Shown: in pieces, positions 1-10,644 of the stretch | Position numbering within the stretch: the first letter of the stretch is position 1 | Layout of the letters: every line of letters starts with the position of its first letter | From: a virus | Taxonomy: Duplodnaviria; Heunggongvirae; Uroviricota; Caudoviricetes | Reading direction: 5' to 3' (one strand) | IMG/VR virus record: IMGVR_UViG_2563366806_000003 | Length of the DNA: 43,220 nt | Notes under the pieces: model-generated | What the model saw: the letters and a program-made list of their open reading frames with translations, nothing else | What the model was told of the DNA's origin: nothing | Databases searched by the model: none | Made by a program: the position numbers and the translations under genes

Positions 1-708
1 ATGTGGGTCAATAAGTATATTGACGATTGCACTGATGAGGATTTAAACGATCGTGACTTTATTGCATCAGTTGTTGACCGGGCTATTTTTCATTTCGCGA
101 TTAATAGTATATGTAATCTTGGGGATAATAAAGATGCAATGCCCATTGAACAATGTACTTTTGATGTAGAAACTAAGAATGACCTTCCCTCCACGGTTCA
201 GCTATTTTATGAGGAATCTAAGGATAATGAACCTTTAGCGAATATACATTTTCAAGCAATAGGTTCTGGTTTTTTAACGTTTGTTAATGCCTGCCAGGAA
301 CATGATGACAACAGCTTAAAATTATTTGCTTCGCTGTTAATTTCACTTTCATATTCTAGTGCCTACGCAGATTTATCAGAAACAGTGTATATTAATGAAA
401 ATAATGAGAGCTACCTGAAAGCTCAGTTTGAAAAATTATCTCAACGTGATATGAAGAAGTACCTGGGAGAGATGAGGCGTCTGGCTGATGGGGGAGAAAT
501 GAATTTTGATGGCTATCTGGATAAGATGTCACATCTGGTGAATGAAGGAACGCTCGATCCTGATATTTTAAGCAAAATGCGAGATGCTGCACCACAATTA
601 ATTAGCTTCGCGAAGTCGTTTGACCCAACCTCAAAGGAAGAGATTAAAATACTTACAGTCACTTCTAAATTAATTTATGATTTGTTCGGGGTTAAATCGG
701 AGAAATAA
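1..708 (+). CDS. yjbM: Uncharacterized host protein, 235 aa (YjbM-like), outside the prophage
   Basis: Complete ORF starting at base 1 and followed by an intrinsic terminator; position upstream of dusA and the 235-aa length match my recollection of E. coli K-12 yjbM. Protein sequence itself not independently recognised. Confidence 0.5.
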   Translation: MWVNKYIDDCTDEDLNDRDFIASVVDRAIFHFAINSICNLGDNKDAMPIEQCTFDVETKNDLPSTVQLFYEESKDNEPLANIHFQAIGSGFLTFVNACQEHDDNSLKLFASLLISLSYSSAYADLSETVYINENNESYLKAQFEKLSQRDMKKYLGEMRRLADGGEMNFDGYLDKMSHLVNEGTLDPDILSKMRDAAPQLISFAKSFDPTSKEEIKILTVTSKLIYDLFGVKSEK

Positions 709-748
709 TATGTGAAGTTCTTCGATAGTATGGAAGGCATTATATAAA

Positions 749-778
749 AGGACCCAATATTTATTGGGTTCTTTTTTC
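749..778 (+). terminator. Rho-independent terminator after the yjbM-like gene
   Basis: Hairpin gacccaata/tattgggt followed by a T-run (cttttttctc). Confidence 0.6.
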
Positions 779-1070
779 TCTATCAATGCTATTAGCAGGG
801 AGATATATCACCAGAGTTTAATGTGTGATTTTTTATTTATCGTCGAACCTGGATTGTTTATCATTGGCCTTAACAAAGTTAACGGCTAATAAGATTATTT
901 CCATCACTTCGTGAGAGCTTCATGCCTTGAGAGGATCTCAATTTTCTTTTGCAATGAGACAGGCGCTTCCTGTTGTTATGGTATAGTACCTCGCTATTGA
1001 GCCTCCTGAACAGTGATGCTGAATAACATAACCCCATGATATATCGATAAAATAATCTCTACATTTGAAA

Positions 1071-1193
1071 ATGCACGGTAATTCTGAAATGCAAAAAATC
1101 AACCAAACCAGCGCAATGCCTGAAAAAACTGACGTTCACTGGAGTGGTCGGTTTAGCGTTGCACCAATGCTCGATAGGATGTACCGTTTTTGA
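1071..1193 (+). pseudogene. dusA: Displaced native 5' fragment of dusA (first ~35 codons, then out-of-frame phage DNA and stop); attL side
   Basis: Translates MHGNSEMQKINQTSAMPEKTDVHWSGRFSVAPMLD, paralogous to the N-terminus of the intact dusA at 41807; similarity ends after atgctcga (1167-1174). Confidence 0.8.
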
Positions 1194-1318
1194 AAAACAA
1201 GTAGTTATACACTTTGTGGGAGCCTATTGGGAACCCGGTGTTTTCATTTCAAGGTGTAATCCATGCCGGGCATCAGAATGAGATATAATGAGATTTTTAG
1301 TGTTCCGCTTGAGAGTCT

Positions 1319-1855
1319 ATGATGCTTACCCTAGACGAGATAGGTCAATCTGTACGTAACAATATCCAGTTGATTATTGATCATGTCGGCTTACCTCTTG
1401 CTGTTGGTCCGCTCAGTGATGATGATTACAAGATTCTGTGTGGTGGCTATGGTGAGCTTGAATGGGACTATGCGTTAAGCACCTATGGCAACTCCAGAGA
1501 AAAGTATGAGTTCTGCATAAAACTTGTTCAGCAAGGTCGGGTTCAGGGAATACCATCAGGAGCAGCAATTTGTGTTTATGGGGTTGAAGAAAACATCTTT
1601 CGTATCCATATGATCGAAAGGTTTTCTAGAGAAGATGAATCTCACCCATTGAAAGGGCGCATGGTTTTACTCACTCTTATGAGTGCTTTTATATTTTGTA
1701 AAGCTGTTGAATGTAAAGTTGTCCACATTGTAGAGCCAGTACCAGAACTGGTGCAGTATTACGAGTCTTTTGGTTTCCGCATGGAACAGTGCGGTTATGT
1801 GATGTCTGCAGTCATTGATGAGCTGCAGGATATCTTTCTTAAATTTGCTCAGTAG
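1319..1855 (+). CDS. Hypothetical cargo protein, 178 aa, weak GNAT-fold-like C-terminus (…YYESFGF…)
   Basis: AT-rich ORF just inside attL, opposite in orientation to the adjacent phage early genes; function not recognised. Confidence 0.5.
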   Translation: MMLTLDEIGQSVRNNIQLIIDHVGLPLAVGPLSDDDYKILCGGYGELEWDYALSTYGNSREKYEFCIKLVQQGRVQGIPSGAAICVYGVEENIFRIHMIERFSREDESHPLKGRMVLLTLMSAFIFCKAVECKVVHIVEPVPELVQYYESFGFRMEQCGYVMSAVIDELQDIFLKFAQ

Positions 1856-2051
1856 GTATAGACGAGAAGGGTCTACAAATTGTAGGATACCCGTCCAGAT
1901 TACCTTAAAGGTACATCTATGGCAGTCGTTTTGTGCTTAAACTACTAAGAAACGATGTCACCAATCGACATGATCGATTGGCATAAGTTAGCGAAACAAG
2001 CTAGCTTTAAAGAGAGGGTTAGAGACGCCTTTACTGTCTCGGGAGTTTTCT

Positions 2052-2225
2052 ATGAAAGATCAAAAAGCAACCAAGCCACAGGTTAAGTTCGACACAATGA
2101 AAGCATTCGCAGGTATGGGTGCTGCTGTTGAAGTTCTGATGAAGGCTGCTCCTAATGCGTTCACTCACGCTACTGTCTCTGGTAAAGAGCAGCAGGGTAA
2201 GCTTCGTCGTCGCAAAGCAGCATGA
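2052..2225 (+). CDS. Small hypothetical protein, 57 aa, basic C-terminus
   Basis: ATG preceded by GGAG at about -8; followed directly by a strong intrinsic terminator; upstream perfect palindrome ccaatcga-N5-tcgattgg (1961-1981). Below the 60-aa cutoff of the ORF track. Confidence 0.4.
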   Translation: MKDQKATKPQVKFDTMKAFAGMGAAVEVLMKAAPNAFTHATVSGKEQQGKLRRRKAA

Positions 2226-2244
2226 TCATAGCTGGTGCTTTTTG

Positions 2245-2272
2245 AAAACCCGCCTTTAGGCGGGTTTTTTCT
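2245..2272. terminator. Bidirectional intrinsic terminator (acccgcc-ttta-ggcgggt) between the small + gene and the leftward early operon
   Basis: GC hairpin flanked by an A-run upstream and a T-run downstream. Confidence 0.65.
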
Positions 2273-2590: not shown

Positions 2591-3163
2591 TCATAATTCT
2601 GTGCTGGTGGCAGGAATTAATTTCTGCCAGATAGCGGAAACATATTTTGCCTGATGACGAGCATCAGCCAGGGCGTTGTGCCGTTCGCCATCGAAAGGCA
2701 TGTCCATTTTGGGGGCGAATCCGATGGAACGCCCAAGCGTAACGATCGTGCGTACATCGTGGTCATTCCAGTATGCCCACGGGCAGATTTGTCCTGCTCG
2801 CTCATAAGCTCCACGTAAAATTACGTTGTCGAAGGTGGCCCCGTTACCCCAGACTTTTAAATATTTTGTATTGTCTGCATGCTGATTAATGAAATGGCTC
2901 AGTTCAGAGAGTGCATCGCTGATCGACAAAGTATCATCAATACAGATTGCAGCTCGTGCTTCAGGGCTCTGTTTCAACCACCACAGGATGGTATCGCCGT
3001 CAGGTGTGGCCCCTTGCTCCATAGCACTTTCCAGGCTGACAACCGTATAGAATTCTTGTCCGATGTCTCCGGTTTCTGGGGTGAAGAACACCGCGCCAAT
3101 GGAAACGATTGGTGCATCCTTATTTTTCCCCATCGTCTCAAGGTCGATCATTAAGTTGTTCAT
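2591..3163 (-). CDS. DnaQ-like 3'-5' exonuclease
   Basis: MIDLETMG…GAV…, WGNG…FD and H…ALADA motifs typical of DEDDh exonucleases; AGGAGG 7 nt upstream of the ATG. Confidence 0.7.
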   Translation of the reverse strand: MNNLMIDLETMGKNKDAPIVSIGAVFFTPETGDIGQEFYTVVSLESAMEQGATPDGDTILWWLKQSPEARAAICIDDTLSISDALSELSHFINQHADNTKYLKVWGNGATFDNVILRGAYERAGQICPWAYWNDHDVRTIVTLGRSIGFAPKMDMPFDGERHNALADARHQAKYVSAIWQKLIPATSTEL

Positions 3164-3645
3164 CACTTCACCTCCTGCTGTGGTGCTGCTGCAATCATCG
3201 CGCGGTATGCAGCCTGCATGTCGTTGTCATCATCGTCTGTGTACGGAGCCGAATCCCATGCTGCACGCATATCCGGAGTAAGCTCAACCGGCACCATCAC
3301 CCAACCATCCGGAATCACCGGACAGTTGCCGCTCACAGCCTCCTGAAAGCGTCCAAGCTCCACGTACTCCTGACATGACCACCCGCCATCAATAAAATCG
3401 CGAGCTTCAACAGCGTCGAAAGTGAACGATGTTACACCTCCAGTTGGTGAGGTTAAGCCGTACAGGTCTGCTACCAGCTTAAACTGTGTGGCTGTTATGG
3501 TGCCCTCATTGGCGAGGGTACCATCCGCTTCGAGTGATGCCAGCGCGATACGCGCCAGTGCAGAAGCCTCACCACATTGAACGTGGTCAGTTTCGATAAT
3601 TTGCTGTAACTGCTCTTTGGTGAATTCTTTGGTGATAGTGCTCAT
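3163..3645 (-). CDS. Hypothetical phage early protein, 160 aa
   Basis: ORF in operon context with coupled start/stop overlaps; no recognised motif. Confidence 0.5.
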   Translation of the reverse strand: MSTITKEFTKEQLQQIIETDHVQCGEASALARIALASLEADGTLANEGTITATQFKLVADLYGLTSPTGGVTSFTFDAVEARDFIDGGWSCQEYVELGRFQEAVSGNCPVIPDGWVMVPVELTPDMRAAWDSAPYTDDDDNDMQAAYRAMIAAAPQQEVK

Positions 3646-3646
3646 A

Positions 3647-4783
3647 TCACTCCCCCTTCACGCCAATGCCAGCGGCGCGGTCAATACGTTCAATTTCTGC
3701 CAGAATAAGAGCGCCAGCTTTTACTAAGTCGCGGCGTGCTCCTGATTGCTTCCACCAGTCAGGAGACCACGGCCAATGTGCTGGAGTGGAGAAACCTTGG
3801 TTGTGCGCATGAATTGCGTAACAAGCCGCTGCATCTGCTAATTCGCTATTTTGATATGCGTTGTCATGTTCAGGAGTCCATCCTTCAACCGACTGTTGCC
3901 GCTGGCGTTCTGCTACCACATCAAGAATTGCGGGATTGAATGCGCCCCCCTCCAGTTCTGCTATGCGCTTCTCTGCGGCTTCCAACTCATCCAGCATCGC
4001 CAGCACGGTAGTGGGGTTTGCTGCGGAGTTCAGCGCGTTCAAGGCAGTGATATCTGCATCAAGCTGAGTTCCTTCTGCCAGTGAGATATCGAAAATGTCA
4101 TCAGGCGGCATAACACTAAGGCGCTCATGTTCGCCAACTGCTGCCGCTGCGATTTCACGCAGCGCCTGTTTGTCGATGTTGCTCATTGGACTGCCTCCTT
4201 TACGAAGCTGTTCGGCGATATCTTCGAGAACGCCATCAGAGAATGAGCGATCAAAATGGCTTTCCGGCGCATTAGTCATAAACTCAGTAGAGGTAAGGAT
4301 CATCCGGGCAATATCCGCGGCGTTCTTCGCAGTATCATCAATAAAACCAGCTTTCCAGGCTGCCAACATTCTGTTCGCCACAAAATAAGCGCCTTCCTTG
4401 CGTGCTTCAGTCTTCCCTTCAGCCAGAAAAGCATCGGTGGCTGGGGTTTTGATTTCGTTAAGCGCATCACTGAATCCACCACGCTCCATACCTAGCTCTG
4501 CTTCGTAATCGGCATCGAATGCAGCGTCTTTGCAGAACTTCTTCAGCTTTGCATTCTCCGCAGCCAGCGCTGAAAACTTCTCGTGTGCCAACTTAACAGC
4601 TGCATCAGCCTGCTTAATTGACTCAATCGCTTTCTGGTGGTCTTCGTACAGAGCCGAAATCTTGGCCTCCGCTTCAGCAAATTTACGCACCAGATATTCA
4701 GCGTTTGTTTCGTTCACTTTCAGATCTCGCGGTACACATTTCCCGCGAAGAAACCCTTCCATTTCGAAAACATTCATGCGCAT
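3647..4783 (-). CDS. Ead/Ea22-like early protein with coiled-coil region and DUF550-like (possible nucleotide pyrophosphohydrolase) C-terminal domain
   Basis: 378-aa ORF; C-terminal …EGWTPEHDNAYQNSELADAAACYAIHA… resembles the DUF550 family common in lambdoid early-left regions (recalled, not searched). Confidence 0.5.
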   Translation of the reverse strand: MRMNVFEMEGFLRGKCVPRDLKVNETNAEYLVRKFAEAEAKISALYEDHQKAIESIKQADAAVKLAHEKFSALAAENAKLKKFCKDAAFDADYEAELGMERGGFSDALNEIKTPATDAFLAEGKTEARKEGAYFVANRMLAAWKAGFIDDTAKNAADIARMILTSTEFMTNAPESHFDRSFSDGVLEDIAEQLRKGGSPMSNIDKQALREIAAAAVGEHERLSVMPPDDIFDISLAEGTQLDADITALNALNSAANPTTVLAMLDELEAAEKRIAELEGGAFNPAILDVVAERQRQQSVEGWTPEHDNAYQNSELADAAACYAIHAHNQGFSTPAHWPWSPDWWKQSGARRDLVKAGALILAEIERIDRAAGIGVKGE

Positions 4784-5337
4784 TTGCGTAACTCCGATAA
4801 CTCGTTAAAACGTTCCATAAACATCCCATAGGCATGGCCTGGCGACAGTGGAATAACTTTGAACATCTCTGTTGCCGGGATACCTTCCAGTACAGGCCAG
4901 AAAGAGCCATCATCAAGCCCGAGATCGCGGCGTTCGGTTGCCAGCATGATGAGATCGGCATATTTCACGGGCGTACTCATAACCGGGGGTAACCCGTATT
5001 TCTCACGGATTACGGCGTCTATTTTTTCTTCCATCCGTTTATAGTCAGGAAGAAGGCGTTTCAGTGGTGCGGGAATGTCCTGGCAATACGCTTCTGTTGC
5101 ATCATGCATTAACGCTTCAAAAGCAAATTCGTGCGGTACCAGCTGGCTGCAAAGCACCGCATGTTGGGCGACGCTGTAGAAGTGTGAAAGATGTCCTGCA
5201 AAGCGACAGATATTTGAAAGGGAAACCGCGATATCGTTAATAACGATGTCATCTTTATTTATCCTGTCATAATAAAAATGCTTCCCGGAAAAAGTTTTAA
5301 TAAATGACATTTTGTTCTCCACGTATATGCGCTGCAC
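4774..5337 (-). CDS. HD-domain phosphohydrolase (YfdR-like 5'-deoxynucleotidase)
   Basis: …AQHAVLCSQL…EALMHDATEAY… HD-type motif pattern; same position and order as yfdR in the CPS-53 yfdP-yfdQ-yfdR cluster. Confidence 0.65.
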   Translation of the reverse strand: MQRIYVENKMSFIKTFSGKHFYYDRINKDDIVINDIAVSLSNICRFAGHLSHFYSVAQHAVLCSQLVPHEFAFEALMHDATEAYCQDIPAPLKRLLPDYKRMEEKIDAVIREKYGLPPVMSTPVKYADLIMLATERRDLGLDDGSFWPVLEGIPATEMFKVIPLSPGHAYGMFMERFNELSELRKCA

Positions 5338-5437
5338 CGCGCTGAATTCTGGTAAAAAGAATCCCTCACCATCCGGCGATTATTGAGTAAATTACGTTTC
5401 CATAAATGCCCCCGCAGGGGCATTTGCAGTAATGAAA

Positions 5438-6262
5438 TCAGGCGGTGAAAGTACCAATAAAGGTTTCTACTTTGCTGTCCTTGAATTTCTCAACAAGCAG
5501 ATCACGAAATTCGTTAGCCATTTCTTCCTGCACCGCCTCCAGCTGAATAATGCGCAGAACCAGTACCGGACGATCGCCAGTGATAATGCTGAGGCGTAAT
5601 TTAAACGGACGTTCTTTCAGACCTTCAAACGGAATGCATTTAAATTCAAATGCCACTGGCATAATGTCTTTGGTCTTCGCTTCGACAGACTCCATCAGGG
5701 AGCGTTTGCCGCTGAAGTCATTATCTTCAAAATCAGCGGTCTGGTTTGCTTCAATCGTGATTTTACGGACCGCCGCAGCCGCTTTTGTTGCCTGAATGGT
5801 GTCACCATTAGCATCAAAGCCCACAAGGTAGTCGGCCCAGTCTTCAATCCATTCTGCCAGTGATTTCTGGGAGTTACGCTCGCCATTAACAGACAACAGA
5901 GCAGAGAACGGTGCTGTCTTTTTCAGTTTGAGAGTGGCGGTGTTATCTGCGTGACCTGGTTCATCAATAGTACCCAGGTTAAGCACACTGACGGCACGCA
6001 TATTATCAGCATCGATAAAGCAGCGGGTGCCTTCATCTGCAAGATCTTTAGAATAACGGGTAAAGTCATCGATGCTGGCAGTGGAAAGCGCACCACGGAA
6101 ACGGAAGCGATTTAAATTAAATTTTTCCAGATCATGAATGCGGAAATTCTCAGGCAATGCCACAGCATCGGCACCAATCTTACTGATAATTTCATTAACA
6201 CCCTGAGCAGAAATAAGGGCATGGATTTGATTAATTGCGGTTGCGTCTAAGTTCTGAGACAT
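5438..6262 (-). CDS. YfdQ-family (DUF2303) phage protein
   Basis: 274-aa ORF of the same length and context as E. coli prophage YfdQ. Confidence 0.6.
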
Positions 6263-6327: not shown

Positions 6328-6690
6328 TTAATGACCTGCTGCGCGGAGTTTTCCGTCAGGTTCACCGGCAAGAGTCAGCAACTGTCCCTGGTCTTCCTGC
6401 AGAATAGTCAGGCGACCACCGCGATTGACATACATCGGCGTTTCGGTGGTGTCTTCTTCGGAAATTTTCCCGCGGTTAGTCGGGCGAACATATGAGAGTT
6501 TGTGTTTGATTTTCACTCGGTTCTCATCAAACGGTTCGATTTCCAGGTTGAGCGAGACCTTACCTTTGGTTTTCGTGTTCATCACACCGGAAGCGACTTC
6601 ACTGAGAACTGCGCCGATTTTGGTTTCAAATACGCCGCCGTCCAGCTCCCCGATAAATGCCTGCACATCAGTACTGCGTTCGCTAGCCAT
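6328..6690 (-). CDS. Hypothetical phage protein, 120 aa (YfdP-like by size and position)
   Basis: Start MASERSTDV… preceded by GAGGAG; the 226-aa track ORF upstream extension runs into GC-rich structured non-coding DNA and is not credible. Confidence 0.5.
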   Translation of the reverse strand: MASERSTDVQAFIGELDGGVFETKIGAVLSEVASGVMNTKTKGKVSLNLEIEPFDENRVKIKHKLSYVRPTNRGKISEEDTTETPMYVNRGGRLTILQEDQGQLLTLAGEPDGKLRAAGH

Positions 6691-6719
6691 TTTGCTGCTC
6701 CTCATCATATCGACCCTGC

Positions 6720-7125
6720 AAGGTCGGTTAGTTTCTCCACAAAACAGAGAAGAACACCTGCGGTGACTGCCGCCCGGATGGATTGGGTTATGAGCCCGTC
6801 GTCCGGTGATGCTCTTCTCTGTTTTGTAAAAAGGACGGTACCAGCCGGAAGCAATGGTACAAGCTGGTACCGCCAAGACTACACACAGCATAAAGTTGTG
6901 GTGCCGGGTGCCTCCCGGTGCCTGGCGAAGGTTGCACACCAGGCGGGTGGGTATCCACAGAAGGTCGACTGTCAGCCTCAACCTTAACCCGCGTGCGCTG
7001 AGCCGCATTCACCACAACGCTAAGGATTCTCTCTGGTTGAAAATACTTAGCTGTTATGTGCCTGTCTTTTCACCACTTCAGGCTCGGTGGTATCCTTTTA
7101 AGCCCGTATACATAAAAGGAAAATC
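6720..7125 (-). other. GC-rich, highly structured non-coding region (candidate ncRNA or cis-regulatory RNA structure)
   Basis: 15-bp perfect inverted repeat caaaacagagaaga (6739-6753 / 6813-6827), second stem ggtaccagc/gctggtacc (6837-6871), further GC-rich palindromes; ORFs here on both strands have non-protein-like composition. Confidence 0.3.
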
Positions 7126-7127
7126 AA

Positions 7128-7373
7128 ATGACTTTTGATGAAAAAGAACTTGATAATGCAATTAATAAAATCATCGTAACGTCGCTCTTTTCCTGTCTCA
7201 GCGACACTCAGCAGAAACAGTTCTACGAATCGGCTTTCAACATGATCGAGCGTTGTTGTTTCTGCGATGCCGACGAGTTACCTGAAAAAATCAGGAAACA
7301 GTTGGCTGATGCTCTTCGAGTGCGACTTTCTGACCAATTTTCTGAAATGTGCTCTCCGAATTTGGACAAATAG
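7128..7373 (+). CDS. Hypothetical small protein, 81 aa
   Basis: Strong RBS (aaaaggaaaatcaaATG), protein-like sequence; overlaps convergently with the 7291-7566 ORF, so only one may be real. Confidence 0.35.
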   Translation: MTFDEKELDNAINKIIVTSLFSCLSDTQQKQFYESAFNMIERCCFCDADELPEKIRKQLADALRVRLSDQFSEMCSPNLDK

Positions 7374-7566
7374 AAAAAGGCCATTTCCATTCAGGGTCTG
7401 ATGGAAATACTTCAGCCTGTTCCAAAGCACGGCGTAAAGAGAATACAACTCCAGCCATAATCTGATGTTTCCCATTGGTCCAGCTATCGCCGCTCTGATC
7501 TACAGGAGCGGCTATGTCGTATGACCAAACGACTTCACCACTATTGTTTAAAATCTGGACTTTCAT
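7291..7566 (-). CDS. Hypothetical protein, 91 aa, first ORF downstream of the leftward early promoter
   Basis: GGAGG about 12 nt upstream; position equivalent to the first pL gene; its 3' part overlaps the + ORF and contains a terminator-like hairpin. Confidence 0.35.
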   Translation of the reverse strand: MKVQILNNSGEVVWSYDIAAPVDQSGDSWTNGKHQIMAGVVFSLRRALEQAEVFPSDPEWKWPFSICPNSESTFQKIGQKVALEEHQPTVS

Positions 7567-7684
7567 TTTGTTCTTTAACCTCCAGATACGGGCGTTTAAT
7601 GGCCCCGCCGAACAGCTCTTTTCCGCAATAGCTGCAATGTCTTTCGCGCATCAGCCTGCGCATTCACCACAACTCTAAAAACAA

Positions 7685-7737
7685 ATGTAGGATATCCAAC
7701 ATGTGAGTGTCAAGAGTTTATGTTGGTTATCCTACAT
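7685..7737 (-). promoter_or_regulatory. Left operator/promoter region (OL/pL-like): two 18-bp palindromic operators flanking a TTGACA -35 on the minus strand
   Basis: atgtaggatatccaacat (7685-7702) and atgttggttatcctacat (7720-7737); same operator/-35 arrangement as the rightward promoter at 8488-8516. Confidence 0.55.
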
Positions 7738-7753
7738 AAAAAGATAGGCTCAT

Positions 7754-7779
7754 AAAAAAACCGGGGATACCCCGGTTTT
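7754..7779 (-). terminator. Intrinsic terminator downstream of the repressor gene
   Basis: ccgggg-atac-cccgg hairpin with a T-run on the minus strand. Confidence 0.65.
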
Positions 7780-7799
7780 GCGATAGTGAGGAAGATGTG

Positions 7800-8453
7800 T
7801 CAAAAATCCATTATTACTTGTTTGACAAGACCAACTATTCTGCAGTTCTCACCGCATTCAATAGTTTTATAGTTAGGATTTAGTGGGACGAGATACCTGT
7901 TCGGCCAGTCCTCAACAAATTTTTTGAGTGTCGCTTCTTGCCCACCATTGATATGGGCAACAACGATTTTTCCGTTAATACACTCTGTATCAATAATATC
8001 TGGCTCTACGATAACGATAGAACCTTCTGGTATCGATGGTGAGCCGAGGGGATTGGTCATTGAATCACCACGGACCCGTAGTGCAAATGCCATTTCTGAT
8101 ACAAGGGCGGTAGTATAAACCCACTCTTCAGCATCTTCTTTCCTGACACCAGGCTCCGTCATTGTCCATGAACCCGCCTGAACCCACGAGATGAGGGGGA
8201 CTTTTTTAACTGCGAATATTTCAGGTTTTAGATTTATCTTTGGTTCAGGCGAGCCTTTTCCGCTAACAAGCCACAGAGGATCGCATTTAAGTGCGTTGGC
8301 TAGGGCTTGAAGGTTGGCTCCATTTGGTTGGTAGTCGTCCTTTTCCCATCCAGTAACCGTGACACGGTTCACACCAGTCAAATCAGCCAGTGCTTGTTGT
8401 GTCAGGTTCAGTTCTTTTCGCCTTTGGCGAATACGATCACTCATGTTCATCAT
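7800..8453 (-). CDS. CI-like prophage repressor (N-terminal XRE-type HTH, C-terminal S24 LexA-like peptidase domain)
   Basis: …LNLTQQALADLTGVNRVTVTGWE… HTH; C-terminal …LRVRGDSMTNP… and …KKF… S24 self-cleavage motifs; divergent from the Cro-like gene with operators between. Confidence 0.85.
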   Translation of the reverse strand: MMNMSDRIRQRRKELNLTQQALADLTGVNRVTVTGWEKDDYQPNGANLQALANALKCDPLWLVSGKGSPEPKINLKPEIFAVKKVPLISWVQAGSWTMTEPGVRKEDAEEWVYTTALVSEMAFALRVRGDSMTNPLGSPSIPEGSIVIVEPDIIDTECINGKIVVAHINGGQEATLKKFVEDWPNRYLVPLNPNYKTIECGENCRIVGLVKQVIMDF

Positions 8454-8476: not shown

Positions 8477-8517
8477 ATGTAGGATTCTTGACATTGGTAT
8501 GTTGGATATCCTACATT
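8477..8517 (+). promoter_or_regulatory. Right operator/promoter region (OR/pR-like)
   Basis: TTGACA at 8488-8493; 18-bp palindromic operator atgttggatatcctacat (8499-8516) over the -10 region; degenerate half-site copy at 8477-8494. Confidence 0.55.
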
Positions 8518-9358: not shown

Positions 9359-9693
9359 ACAGTTTAACAACACACTACCGTCGCTCGCAACTGATTGCGC
9401 TTCCTGTACCGGGTGGAAAAGCGAAGGTGGAGTATTGCTATGCAGTGAATGTACCAGGTGACAGGGAAATTGTAACCCACAGCTTTGCAGAGTGGGCTGT
9501 GGGGGATTTCAACCGGCAGAAGGAGACAGTCCTTTGCGACAAGTTAACCGCTGGTTCAAAGATCACTACGGAGTGCCCGTCAGAGTCATTCGTTGGGAAC
9601 CGGAAACACAACGGGTTATCTACCTCCGCGAAGGCTATGAGTATGAGTGCTTCAGCCCGCTCGAACAGTTTCGTCGTAAATTCAGGGAAATAG
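9355..9693 (+). CDS. Hypothetical early protein, 112 aa (YmfM-like by size and position)
   Basis: ATGA start/stop overlap with the upstream gene; C-terminal third is low-complexity and overlaps a protein-like alternative frame (9492-9713). Confidence 0.4.
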
Positions 9694-9702
9694 AGGTCGG
9701 TC

Positions 9703-10644
9703 ATGAGCACTAAATTAACCGGCTATGTATGGGATGGTTGCGCAGCGTCAGGCATGAAATTATCCAGCGTGGCAATTATGGCCCGCCTGGCTGATTTCAG
9801 TAATGACGAAGGTGTGTGCTGGCCATCAATTGAAACCATTGCCCGCCAGATTGGCGCGGGGATGAGTACCGTCAGAACGGCTATCGCACGGCTGGAAGCA
9901 GAAGGCTGGTTAACGCGTAAGGCGCGTCGCCAGGGTAACCGCAATGCGTCGAATGTTTATCAGCTTAACGTTGCGAAGCTTCAGGCAGCGGCATTTTCTC
10001 AACTGTCAGATTCTGACCAGTCAAAATCTGACGCATCAAAATCTGACCCGTCAAAATTTGATGCGTCGAAATCTGGCAAAAAAGCGGGTTTTCACCCGTC
10101 AGAATCTGGCGGGGATCCGTCAGTAAAATCAAAACATGATCCGTCAGATAAAAAACCTTCTCGTCCGGACGCTTCGCAACCGGACACGCAGACGGCTGAA
10201 CAGGATTTTTTAACTCGCCATCCTGATGCGGTTGTATTCAGCCCTAAAAAACGCCAGTGGGGGACGCAGGATGATTTGACCTGCGCACAGTGGCTCTGGA
10301 AAAAAATCATCGCCCTGTACGAGCAGGCCGCCGAATGTGACGGCGAGGTGGTTCGTCCCAAAGAACCGAACTGGACAGCCTGGGCAAACGAAATTCGCCT
10401 GATGTGTGTGCAGGATGGTCGTACTCATAAACAAATCTGCGAGATGTACAGCCGCGTCAGTCGCGATCCGTTCTGGTGCCGTAACGTGCTCAGCCCGTCG
10501 AAGCTGCGGGAAAAATGGGATGAGCTTTCCCTGCGCTTATCGCCGTCCGTCAGCACATACACAGAAAAACGTGAAGATCCGTACTTCAAATCCAGTTACG
10601 ACAACGTGGACTACAGCCAGATCCCGGCAGGATTCAGGGGGTGA
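9703..10644 (+). CDS. Replication initiator (O-like, N-terminal HTH) with internal iteron-encoded repeat region
   Basis: N-terminal HTH (…MSTVRTAIARLEAEGWL…); central SKSD/PS repeats encoded by iterons at 10005-10160. Confidence 0.65.
   Translation: MSTKLTGYVWDGCAASGMKLSSVAIMARLADFSNDEGVCWPSIETIARQIGAGMSTVRTAIARLEAEGWLTRKARRQGNRNASNVYQLNVAKLQAAAFSQLSDSDQSKSDASKSDPSKFDASKSGKKAGFHPSESGGDPSVKSKHDPSDKKPSRPDASQPDTQTAEQDFLTRHPDAVVFSPKKRQWGTQDDLTCAQWLWKKIIALYEQAAECDGEVVRPKEPNWTAWANEIRLMCVQDGRTHKQICEMYSRVSRDPFWCRNVLSPSKLREKWDELSLRLSPSVSTYTEKREDPYFKSSYDNVDYSQIPAGFRG
10005..10160. repeat. Putative replication origin iterons inside the initiator gene
   Basis: At least 7 direct repeats of about 15 bp (tcaaaatctgac / ccgtcagaatctg variants) followed by an A-rich stretch. 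Confidence 0.5.

Follow-up and report, generated by a model that had tools for sequence, protein, structure and literature searches.

Gene layout of the early-left operon

The interval studied here lies in a window of 43,220 nucleotides (IMG/VR record IMGVR_UViG_2563366806_000003, Caudoviricetes) and holds two overlapping minus-strand open reading frames (ORFs), one of 378 aa at 3647-4783 and the other at 4774-5337, adjacent to each other as an earlier, sequence-only reading had said. The overlap, which joins yfdR to an Ea22-like ORF, is 10 nt long (ATGCGCATGA). That reading had the Ea22-like gene followed by the HD-domain gene, which reverses the order of transcription, in which the HD gene comes first. 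Its placement of both genes in the early-left operon stands, as this operon spans from a candidate pL (7713-7684) at its start to a PrtN-type excisionase gene (2273-2581) at its end, with no minus-strand terminator-like site of more than five stem pairs between the two.

The conserved yfdP-yfdQ-yfdR block opens with a yfdP-like gene (6328-6690, minus strand; PHROG 204, E 4e-50), and the gene that occupies this place in strain EC09 is annotated by PGAP as 'protein YfdP'. The cassette partner upstream of yfdR is yfdQ (5438-6262, minus strand), which matches Pfam DUF2303 (E 8e-92) and whose product is identical to K-12 YfdQ at 270 of 274 residues (99%). On the other side of the interval, the next operon gene, orf160 (3163-3645, minus strand; 160 aa; PHROG 60, E 3e-23), starts 1 nt past the stop of the Ea22-like ORF. 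As a YfdT equivalent, orf160 was considered and set aside, the resemblance being weak and confined to 42 N-terminal residues (E 0.05). A gene for a DEDDh 3'-5' exonuclease lies two genes downstream, and neither tRNA genes nor Rfam families were found in the window. The locus is the early-left operon of a lambdoid prophage, apparently a complete one, and the interval itself holds the 3' part of a CPS-53-type yfdP-yfdQ-yfdR cassette, with a recombinant Ea22-like gene behind it.

YfdR, a near-identical copy of a K-12 HD-domain protein

The longest ORF of the HD gene begins with GTG at 5337, while an ATG at 5310, with GGAG 6 nt upstream, is the likely true start, which gives a yfdR of 178 codons (4774-5310, minus strand) for an HD-domain phosphohydrolase (5'-deoxynucleotidase YfdR). 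The proposal that this is a phosphohydrolase of the YfdR type was borne out: the protein aligns with K-12 YfdR over its full length and without gaps, with 173 of 178 residues identical (97%), and it matches PHROG 318 ('deoxyribonucleoside 5' monophosphate phosphatase'; E 9e-111) and PDB 2GZ4, the HD protein Atu1052 (E 3e-13). The H...HD...D metal-binding motif of the HD superfamily is complete, H50, H69-D70, E73 and D78 being the same in YfbR and in both DatZ proteins aligned with it, and K-Y-A-D119 aligns with K-K-A-D of Atu1052. On these residues, the enzyme appears catalytically intact. In Pfam, the protein has a weak match to the YfbR-like family PF12917, with a score just below the gathering threshold (23.6 bits, cut-off 25.9). 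Likewise, the protein scores 19.7 against NCBIfam NF003009 (5'-deoxynucleotidase), for which the cut-off is 122, both models being of YfbR and not of YfdR. Exact copies of the protein occur on 318 contigs, in a cluster of 5,391 members. Neither YfdR nor the Ea22-like protein matches a PADLOC defence model. Dmp of phage T5 was rejected as a YfdR homologue (BLASTP E 3.7; it belongs to a different PHROG, 415).

A mosaic ORF created by a frameshift fusion

The 378-aa ORF (3647-4783, minus strand) is a mosaic, in which the first 45 codons of yfdS are followed by two unrelated early-left coiled-coil genes, here called gene A and gene B, that were fused by a one-base insertion. Among its PHROG matches, PHROG 14548 covers all 378 positions, PHROG 614 residues 1-198 and PHROG 19550 residues 200-378. 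The exact protein occurs on at least 50 contigs and a variant of it on 60. In an AF2 full-length model (mean pLDDT 68) it is all-helical, with long helices at 18-99 and 257-281.

The first 45 residues (4649-4783, minus strand) are identical to the N-terminus of K-12 YfdS at 40 positions, and on viral contigs this module opens 69 of the 78 genes directly downstream of yfdR, regardless of what comes next. By this distribution, the module is the part that is genetically linked to yfdR. Because these 45 yfdS codons overlap the yfdR stop, translational coupling of the 378-aa ORF to yfdR is probable. The remainder of gene A (4190-4648, minus strand), which matches PHROGs 614, 368 and 492, is predicted to consist of a coiled-coil helix extending to about residue 99 (pLDDT 75-88 for helix 18-99) and a poorly predicted helical module at 100-198 (pLDDT 35-59 for residues 99-200). 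Unfused relatives are P0448 (206 aa) and Bas106 gp27 (214 aa).

At the fusion junction (4184-4202, minus strand), the sequence AAAGGAGG-N7-ATG comprises the Shine-Dalgarno sequence and start of gene B (M200, ATG 4186-4184), the former being perfect and 7 nt ahead of the ATG at 4186. The corresponding junction in Bas106 reads ...CGC-AAGGAGGCCGCCCAATGA, so that gene A ends in RKEAAQ* and its TGA stop shares bases with the ATG; the unfused P0448 ends in ...LRKGVIQ. One extra base at the junction has therefore cost gene A its stop codon and fused genes A and B. More than 100 contigs carry this same fusion junction, which comes behind either of two N-termini and so gives proteins of 378 aa or 357 aa.

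Gene B opens with an Ead/Ea22 N-terminal module and coiled-coil stalk (3950-4183, minus strand), and it is to this part of the protein, residues 201-278, that the label 'Ea22-like' properly belongs (Pfam Ead_Ea22 PF13935, E 2e-17, 64.4 bits for a cut-off of 27, model positions 1-87 of 139). What BLASTP finds in common with lambda Ea22 is limited to the N-terminal MSxIxxQALRE and an eight-residue C-terminal tail, AGIxxKGE. No homology to the C-terminal domain of lambda Ea22, the structure of which has been solved, was found in the 378-aa ORF by BLASTP, nor was there any PDB sequence match.

An abundant helical head domain that is not DUF550

Near its C-terminus, the protein carries a conserved helical domain (residues ~284-372; 3668-3934, minus strand), hereafter the head, with the motif ERxRQ..EGWTPEHD(D/N)..CYA..WPW..WWK..RRDLVKAGALILAEIERxDR. 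It is widespread, with 15,159 cluster representatives at E<=1e-3 in a 50%-identity library, and copies in alpha-, beta- and gamma-proteobacterial genomes are 44-65% identical. A set of Glu, Asp, Arg and Lys residues and five Trp residues are near-invariant, position 308 being N in this copy and D in 96% of the family. In homologues the head is usually C-terminal (a median of 8 residues lie beyond it), and its AF2 model (pLDDT 90, pTM 0.81) shows three main helices and a Trp-rich loop. No Pfam, NCBIfam or PADLOC family matched the head, nor did any PDB entry by sequence or by fold.

The sequence-only reading had seen in this C-terminus a likeness to DUF550 (PF04447), a nucleotide pyrophosphohydrolase-like family, which found no support. 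A Pfam scan at E<=10 returned no DUF550 for the whole protein or for its C-terminal 100 or 179 residues, and neither PF04447 nor PF18909 was matched at this threshold by any of 47 family members (this copy and 46 relatives), in a scan for which the S-2L MazZ protein served as positive control (PF04447, E 2e-11). In hhalign, an alignment of the head gave a probability of 0.3% (E 0.24, over 23 columns) against 29 PF04447 proteins and no similarity to S-2L MazZ alone. Of the two domains proposed for this locus, the HD-type enzyme is thus present in YfdR, and DUF550 is absent by both Pfam and hhalign. Foldseek searches against the PDB retrieved no MazG, HisE or dUTPase structure (all matches had E>3 and TM<=0.35), and the head does not match the all-alpha MazG-HisE fold. 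For the metal-binding motifs EExxE ... ExxD in canonical order the picture is mixed, as the head has acidic residues (E363-x-E365-x-x-D368 in the last helix; E292, E300, E305 and D307 in the first helix and loop), but with a spacing and order other than those of the MazZ invariants E35, E38, E50 and D53. A search with the Ead N-module for relatives with DUF550 heads returned, among its best 120 matches, short Ead/Ea22 proteins throughout, with no other Pfam domain. Kinship of the head with PF18909, for which a motif and weak BFVD matches had spoken, found no support either (hhalign probability 0.1% against gp25 of Burkholderia phage JG068, which was confirmed as a PF18909 protein and a search for whose relatives returned that phage only).

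Are the two genes a functional pair?

The two genes had been interpreted as a pair of nucleotide-processing enzymes. The DUF550 assignment failed in the Pfam, hhalign and PDB Foldseek searches, and the adjacency itself is rare: among 5,426 complete E. coli genomes, three have yfdR and this Ea22-like gene contiguously. Among 80 loci with a YfdR at least 98% identical, one has the head domain downstream of yfdR. Conversely, a YfdR-like gene is found near the head domain at five of 80 viral loci and two of 80 bacterial ones, and a YfbR- or DatZ-like HD gene at none of them. Since the neighbour is not a DUF550 hydrolase and the genes occur together only rarely, they do not constitute a nucleotide-hydrolase pair: the pairing, a rare product of chance mosaicism, is no conserved module.

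We consider it rather likely that the 378-aa ORF is no enzyme partner of YfdR. By analogy with lambda Ea22, we infer that it would form an oligomeric stalk displaying the conserved helical head, whose function, if any, would be to bind a conserved target. Three other readings have to be weighed against this one. That YfdR and a MazG/DUF550-like head act together to change the pools of dNTPs/dNMPs or signalling nucleotides soon after induction, echoing datZ/mazZ of Z-genome phages, would draw on a YfdR that is an HD phosphohydrolase with its ligands in place, on cyanophage S-2L, in which the HD dATPase DatZ adjoins the PF04447 protein MazZ, and on the many invariant acidic and basic residues of the head. 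Foldseek against viral models adds weak matches, one of them labelled 'putative NTP pyrophosphohydrolase' (E 0.13, prob 0.92), several others being PF18909 'dATP/dGTP diphosphohydrolase N-terminal' proteins (E 0.8-3, prob 0.3-0.66, TM 0.37-0.49). However, the profile and PDB fold searches described above oppose it, PF18909 is not the catalytic domain, the head has N308 where almost all of its family has D, the adjacency is unconserved and there is no purZ-like gene, all of which makes it very improbable. Somewhat less remote, but still improbable, is that the head represents a new nucleotide-binding or -hydrolysing fold distantly related to helical PF18909/MazG-like phage domains, or a binder of a universally conserved host protein; the high conservation of its charged residues would fit an enzyme too. 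If it were a nucleotide fold, the spirit of the sequence-only reading would hold for the head family, though not for the partnership with YfdR. The most serious alternative, which we nevertheless regard as unlikely, is that the 378-aa ORF is what remains of a pseudogene in decay, in which only the 179-aa product of gene B (from ATG 4186) is made and functional and 4187-4783 is non-functional debris translated by accident. This is how PGAP treats strain EC09 (99.9% identical to this interval), in which the stretches 4196-4579 and 4649-4783 are called fragments of incomplete pseudogenes while a separate ead/Ea22-like gene spans 3647-4186, and both the intact ribosome-binding site of gene B and the poor model for residues 99-200 agree with it. 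Yet the 1,137-nt frame remains open, its ATG retains the coupled overlap with yfdR, and the same junction recurs behind two N-termini.

A role for the cassette in restraining chromosome initiation?

Published work on K-12 offers a different entry into the function of YfdR, which binds domain I of DnaA directly, through Phe46, in competition with DiaA and DnaB (Noguchi & Katayama, 2016; PMC4776307). Initiation at oriC is inhibited when YfdR, YfdQ and either YfdS or YfdT are supplied in multicopy, and only with such multicopy yfdQRS or yfdQRT, for which the authors allow an overexpression artefact (PMC4776307). The best-supported role of the cassette, and on balance the one we favour, is this published one, in which YfdR binds DnaA and, acting with its neighbours, would restrain initiation at oriC. 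In a live prophage, an early-left cassette of this kind would restrain initiation of the host chromosome after induction or infection, and the phosphohydrolase activity of YfdR would be secondary, or act on some further substrate. Whereas the identities of the genes, the mosaic and fused make-up of the ORF, the lack of DUF550 and the scarcity of the pairing are observed, this in vivo role in the present phage is our proposal, as is any function of the head. Of the minimal yfdQRS(T) set, yfdQ and yfdR are present, YfdS is reduced to its first 45 residues and no convincing YfdT is seen; with no intact YfdS and no clear YfdT, the published gene set is incomplete here. In addition, the conserved catalytic residues argue for selection on the enzymatic activity of YfdR, which could be its main role, and this counts against initiation restraint.

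Taken further, this would make YfdR mainly an early phage 5'-deoxynucleotidase, in function a counterpart of T5 Dmp, acting on dNMPs or on some nucleotide that is modified or serves in signalling, with an incidental DnaA interaction and an unrelated Ea22-like gene. In thousands of prophages the protein has kept every HD catalytic residue at 97% identity, the RefSeq name (5'-deoxynucleotidase) and the PHROG 318 name (dNMP phosphatase) agree, and the DEDDh 3'-5' exonuclease downstream would yield monophosphates. Against this, the 5'-deoxynucleotidase activity of K-12 YfdR is described as weak, its nucleotide affinities as far below those of YfbR and its function as 'elusive', in the account that PMC4776307 gives of Zimmerman (2008). 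T5 Dmp is not homologous to YfdR, so the parallel is a functional one only, and what a temperate phage would gain from wasting dNMPs is not obvious. We hold this reading to be quite unlikely, slightly more so than the pseudogene interpretation of the neighbouring ORF.

Significance

The YfdR of this prophage is a near-identical copy of a K-12 prophage protein that has already been studied, and its supposed enzyme partner is none. As judged from sequence comparison, the conserved genetic unit consists of yfdP-yfdQ-yfdR and no more of the following gene than its first 45 codons, which locates a recombination boundary precisely and points to translational coupling. The frameshift fusion seen in the 378-aa ORF is a natural one, and annotation pipelines differ in how they divide it. 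Finally, in abundance and conservation the head ranks high among prophage domains still without a family model or functional description, and would be a reasonable structural and biochemical target among early-left 'exo-xis' accessory genes.

Comparison with known systems

The closest known system is the yfdP-yfdQ-yfdR-yfdS-yfdT cassette of K-12 CPS-53 (KpLE1) (Noguchi & Katayama, 2016; PMC4776307), which has the same gene order, the same 127-nt yfdQ-yfdR spacer, the same 10-nt overlap between yfdR and the next gene, and a next gene whose opening 45 residues are shared with the ORF described here. In place of the DUF551 body of YfdS, this ORF has coiled-coil/Ea22-like modules and a C-terminal domain of unrelated origin, no clear YfdT is present and the prophage is apparently complete, whereas CPS-53 is a cryptic remnant.

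Ea22 proteins are mosaic, pro-lysogenic proteins with a tetrameric coiled coil and swappable C-terminal domains (PMC10834534; PMC7093339). With those of lambda and Stx phages, the protein described here shares the Ead_Ea22 N-module, the central coiled coil, a swappable head, the AGIxxKGE tail and the early-left position upstream of xis. It differs in carrying an extra upstream gene by fusion, in a C-terminal domain without similarity to that of lambda, and in a head from another family, one that is missing from the variants described in print, such as the lambda CTD and DUF551.

With the MazZ/DUF550 (PF04447) dATP/dGTP pyrophosphohydrolases of Z-genome phages (PMC8342488), the head has in common that both are small, all-helical, acidic-rich conserved phage domains that neighbour an HD enzyme, in S-2L as here. 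There is no detectable sequence or profile similarity and no MazG-HisE fold match between them, the three main helices and Trp-rich loop predicted for the head contrasting with a four-helix bundle. As for YfdR, the H...HD...D ligands and the E/D residues that follow the HD motif are common to it, to the 5'-deoxynucleotidase YfbR and to DatZ, a dATP triphosphohydrolase. It is just 23-30% identical to these two, has an N-terminal extension of 30 residues and differs from them in its C-terminal half, and it is nearer to Atu1052 (PDB 2GZ4) than to either of them.

Genome setting of the interval

ORF calling places two overlapping minus-strand ORFs in 3647-5337: an HD-type ORF, yfdR (4774-5337 counted from a GTG), whose probable start is the ATG at 5310 (GGAG 6 nt upstream; 178-aa product, as K-12 YfdR), and a mosaic Ea22-like ORF of 378 aa (3647-4783). 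They belong to a minus-strand run that also comprises a yfdP-like gene (6328-6690), yfdQ/DUF2303 (5438-6262), a 160-aa ORF (3163-3645), a gene for an Rv2179c-like DEDDh 3'-5' exo(ribo)nuclease (2591-3166; Pfam E 3e-75) and a PrtN-family excisionase gene (2273-2581). The yfdP-like ORF reaches well upstream of the YfdP start (6328-7008). The exonuclease, in the same operon two genes downstream, is the sole other nucleic-acid enzyme close to yfdR.

A promoter-like site (7713-7684), immediately to the left of a LexA/CI-type repressor gene (7800-8453), precedes the run from the yfdP-like gene to the excisionase, and this layout of site, repressor and same-strand genes identifies the run as the early-left operon of a lambdoid E. 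coli prophage, where the sequence-only reading had put it. The order given there, Ea22-like gene then HD gene, is reversed, since transcription reads the HD gene first. Identical, outward-facing promoter-like hexamers (TTGACA-18-TACATT) flank the repressor gene at 7684-7713 (-) and 8488-8517 (+), and are candidates for pL and pR.

Strain EC09, the closest complete genome, matches 88% of the first 12 kb at 99.7% identity. The window carries a surplus of ~656 bp between yfdP and the repressor gene (~6700-7800), the latter lying at 7144-7797 in EC09, with small ORFs on both strands (7128-7373, +; 7291-7566, -). Within window 1-2270, no integrase gene accompanies the PrtN-type excisionase, GC falls to 36-41%, a strong hairpin terminator occupies 2244-2269, and PGAP calls in EC09 include a tRNA-dihydrouridine synthase fragment (1071-1175) and a frameshifted DUF2713 gene (1-708). 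A prophage end or attachment-site scar is probably located there.

The HD gene is yfdR

The HD protein is identical to YfdR of the cryptic K-12 prophage CPS-53 (annotated as a 5'-deoxynucleotidase) at 173/178 positions, and the upstream product to YfdQ at 270/274. K-12 also has the same yfdQ-yfdR spacer, of equal length, and the same 10-nt overlap of yfdR with the next gene (ATGCGCATGA). Aligned with YfbR and two DatZ dATPases, the protein shows no variation at H50, H69-D70, E73 and D78; the fourth metal ligand, D119, sits in K-Y-A-D, opposite K-K-A-D of the HD protein Atu1052 (PDB 2GZ4, E 3e-13). PHROG 318 is matched at E 9e-111, and the Pfam YfbR-like model, which was built around YfbR, scores 23.6 bits, just below its 25.9 cut-off. 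The identity to K-12, the invariant HD residues and the 2GZ4 and PHROG matches confirm the YfdR-type call, and by its sequence this is an already known protein.

The 127-nt yfdQ-yfdR spacer contains a 9-bp GC-rich hairpin, AAAUGCCCC-UGCG-GGGGCAUUU, at 5404-5425 (-), with no T-tract. Folding of the spacer beats that of shuffled sequences (z = -2.5; 6/200 equally good), and the hairpin may act in RNA processing, RNA stability or attenuation.

The downstream ORF is a frame fusion

Residues 1-45 of the 378-aa ORF are 89% identical to the YfdS N-terminus (hereafter N45), where similarity ends. PHROG 614 covers residues 1-198, PHROG 19550 covers 200-378 and PHROG 14548 all 378. Residue 200 is an ATG (4186) at which the Ea22-like gene has kept a perfect AAGGAGG 7 nt ahead (AAGGAGG-N7-ATG). 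Phage CurroJimenez_Bas106 has two separate genes for the equivalent parts, the first ending ...IRKEAAQ* with its TGA overlapping the ATG of the second, and in an unfused E. coli relative the upstream product ends ...LRKGVIQ. The window has one base more than unfused relatives at the junction (4184-4202, -), which reads ...LRKGGSP-MSNIDK..., and therefore the stop of the upstream gene was lost and the two frames were joined. The fusion is real and not a sequencing error, because the exact protein recurs on 50 or more contigs, 60 carry a variant differing by one residue, and the identical junction is seen behind another N-terminus in a 357-aa form. Annotation pipelines treat this region either as a single gene or as a gene with pseudogene fragments beside it; PGAP limits the gene to 3647-4186 and assigns the remainder to pseudogene fragments.

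The full-length AlphaFold model is all-helical, with a long helix (residues 18-99, pLDDT 75-88), a poorly predicted region (99-200), a helix at 257-281 and a compact C-terminal domain. The Ea22-like call is upheld by Pfam PF13935 (Ead/Ea22 N-module; residues 201-278, model positions 1-87 of 139, E 2e-17).

The C-terminal head is not DUF550

The C-terminal domain (the head, residues ~284-372) had been likened to DUF550. However, PF04447 finds no match at E<=10 in the full-length protein, in its last 100 or 179 residues, or in any of 47 diverse family members (the positive control, S-2L MazZ, matches at E 2e-11). Comparing the head-family alignment with an alignment of 29 PF04447 proteins, hhalign returns a probability of 0.3% (E 0.24, 23 columns). 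The head model (pLDDT 90, pTM 0.81) retrieves no MazG-like chain from the PDB, the best chain having E 3.3. Among predicted viral structures, its seven significant matches are all plain homologues, and below them lie weak matches to DUF7768 (E 0.06), to one protein labelled 'putative NTP pyrophosphohydrolase' (E 0.13) and to PF18909 'diphosphohydrolase N-terminal' proteins, of which there are several (E 0.8-3, TM 0.37-0.49); against a verified PF18909 protein hhalign gives only 0.1%, which leaves this candidate unsupported. DUF550 membership therefore fails; very remote kinship with helical phage nucleotide-associated domains is conceivable but unsupported.

The head defines an abundant, strongly conserved family: a library clustered at 50% identity contains 15,159 representatives at E<=1e-3, and the domain is found at 44-65% identity in prophages of Enterobacterales, Pseudomonas, Burkholderiales, Rhizobiales, Rhodobacterales and Sphingomonadales. 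It is almost always C-terminal, in proteins whose length varies widely (99-923 aa), and DUF551 follows it in some cases. Pfam, NCBIfam and PADLOC have no model for it. Its alignment has 16 invariant columns and 24 more that are >=90% conserved, including E292, R293, R295, W302, D307, Y322, W337-P-W339, K345, R350, R366, D368 and R369. An active site could account for this conservation, and so could binding to a conserved host component. Residue 308 (3860-3862, -), within the near-invariant EGWTPEHDD, is N in the window and close E. coli relatives and D in 96% of the family; if the family is enzymatic, the N308 subgroup may be altered or inactive. The function of the head is a question for this family rather than for this locus.

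The pairing with yfdR is rare

In 80 viral contigs encoding YfdR at >=98% identity, the gene directly downstream was typed as YfdS (N45 + DUF551) in 47, N45 plus a coiled-coil module in 17, an unrelated 292-aa protein in eight and the 378-aa fusion in one, the only contig with a head anywhere downstream. N45 follows yfdR in 69/78 loci whatever body comes next (DUF551, coiled coil or fusion). It acts as a separate module (K-12, 9512-9874; viral loci L091-L170). Starting from the head, a YfdR homologue lies within 6 kb in 5/80 viral loci and a YfbR- or DatZ-type HD gene in 0/80, integrase being the only frequent neighbour; a YfdR-like gene lies within 3 kb in two of 80 bacterial species representatives. 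An isolated case, and the only hint that the pairing recurs outside Enterobacteria, comes from a distant alphaproteobacterial genome (Hyphomicrobiales MAG, L187, 849-2040), with a YfdR-like gene (E 4e-27) ~300 bp downstream of a head gene. A survey of 5,426 complete E. coli genomes gives partial matches to the interval in 3,325 and a contiguous copy in only three. On these counts, the conserved unit is yfdP-yfdQ-yfdR plus the first 45 codons of the next gene, whatever that gene is, and the Ea22-like body is a passenger recently brought in by recombination. Of the calls made from sequence, HD/YfdR and Ea22-like stand and DUF550 does not; the proposed two-enzyme nucleotide module is unsupported.

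Comparison with known systems

Multicopy yfdQRS or yfdQRT has been shown to suppress over-initiation mutants and to inhibit oriC initiation in wild-type cells, and purified YfdR binds DnaA, for which DnaA Phe46 is important (Noguchi and Katayama, PMC4776307). These authors proposed that the cassette once aided an ancestral phage by restraining host initiation, and cautioned about possible overexpression artefacts; in their paper, nucleotide affinities of YfdR are far below those of YfbR and its function is termed 'elusive'. Restraint of host replication initiation by the cassette, as published, would be the best available mechanism here, with reservations because neither intact YfdS nor clear YfdT is found in the window and because the catalytic residues are strictly conserved, which suggests that enzymatic activity of YfdR also matters. 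As for the neighbouring gene, similarity between the 378-aa protein and lambda Ea22 is confined to the N-terminal MSxIxxQALRE and the final eight residues. This agrees with published work that describes Ea22 proteins as mosaic, with the N-terminus and coiled coil in common and C-terminal heads that are unrelated and portable (PMC10834534). The locus amounts to an unremarkable prophage cassette of a kind described before, beside a mosaic accessory gene.
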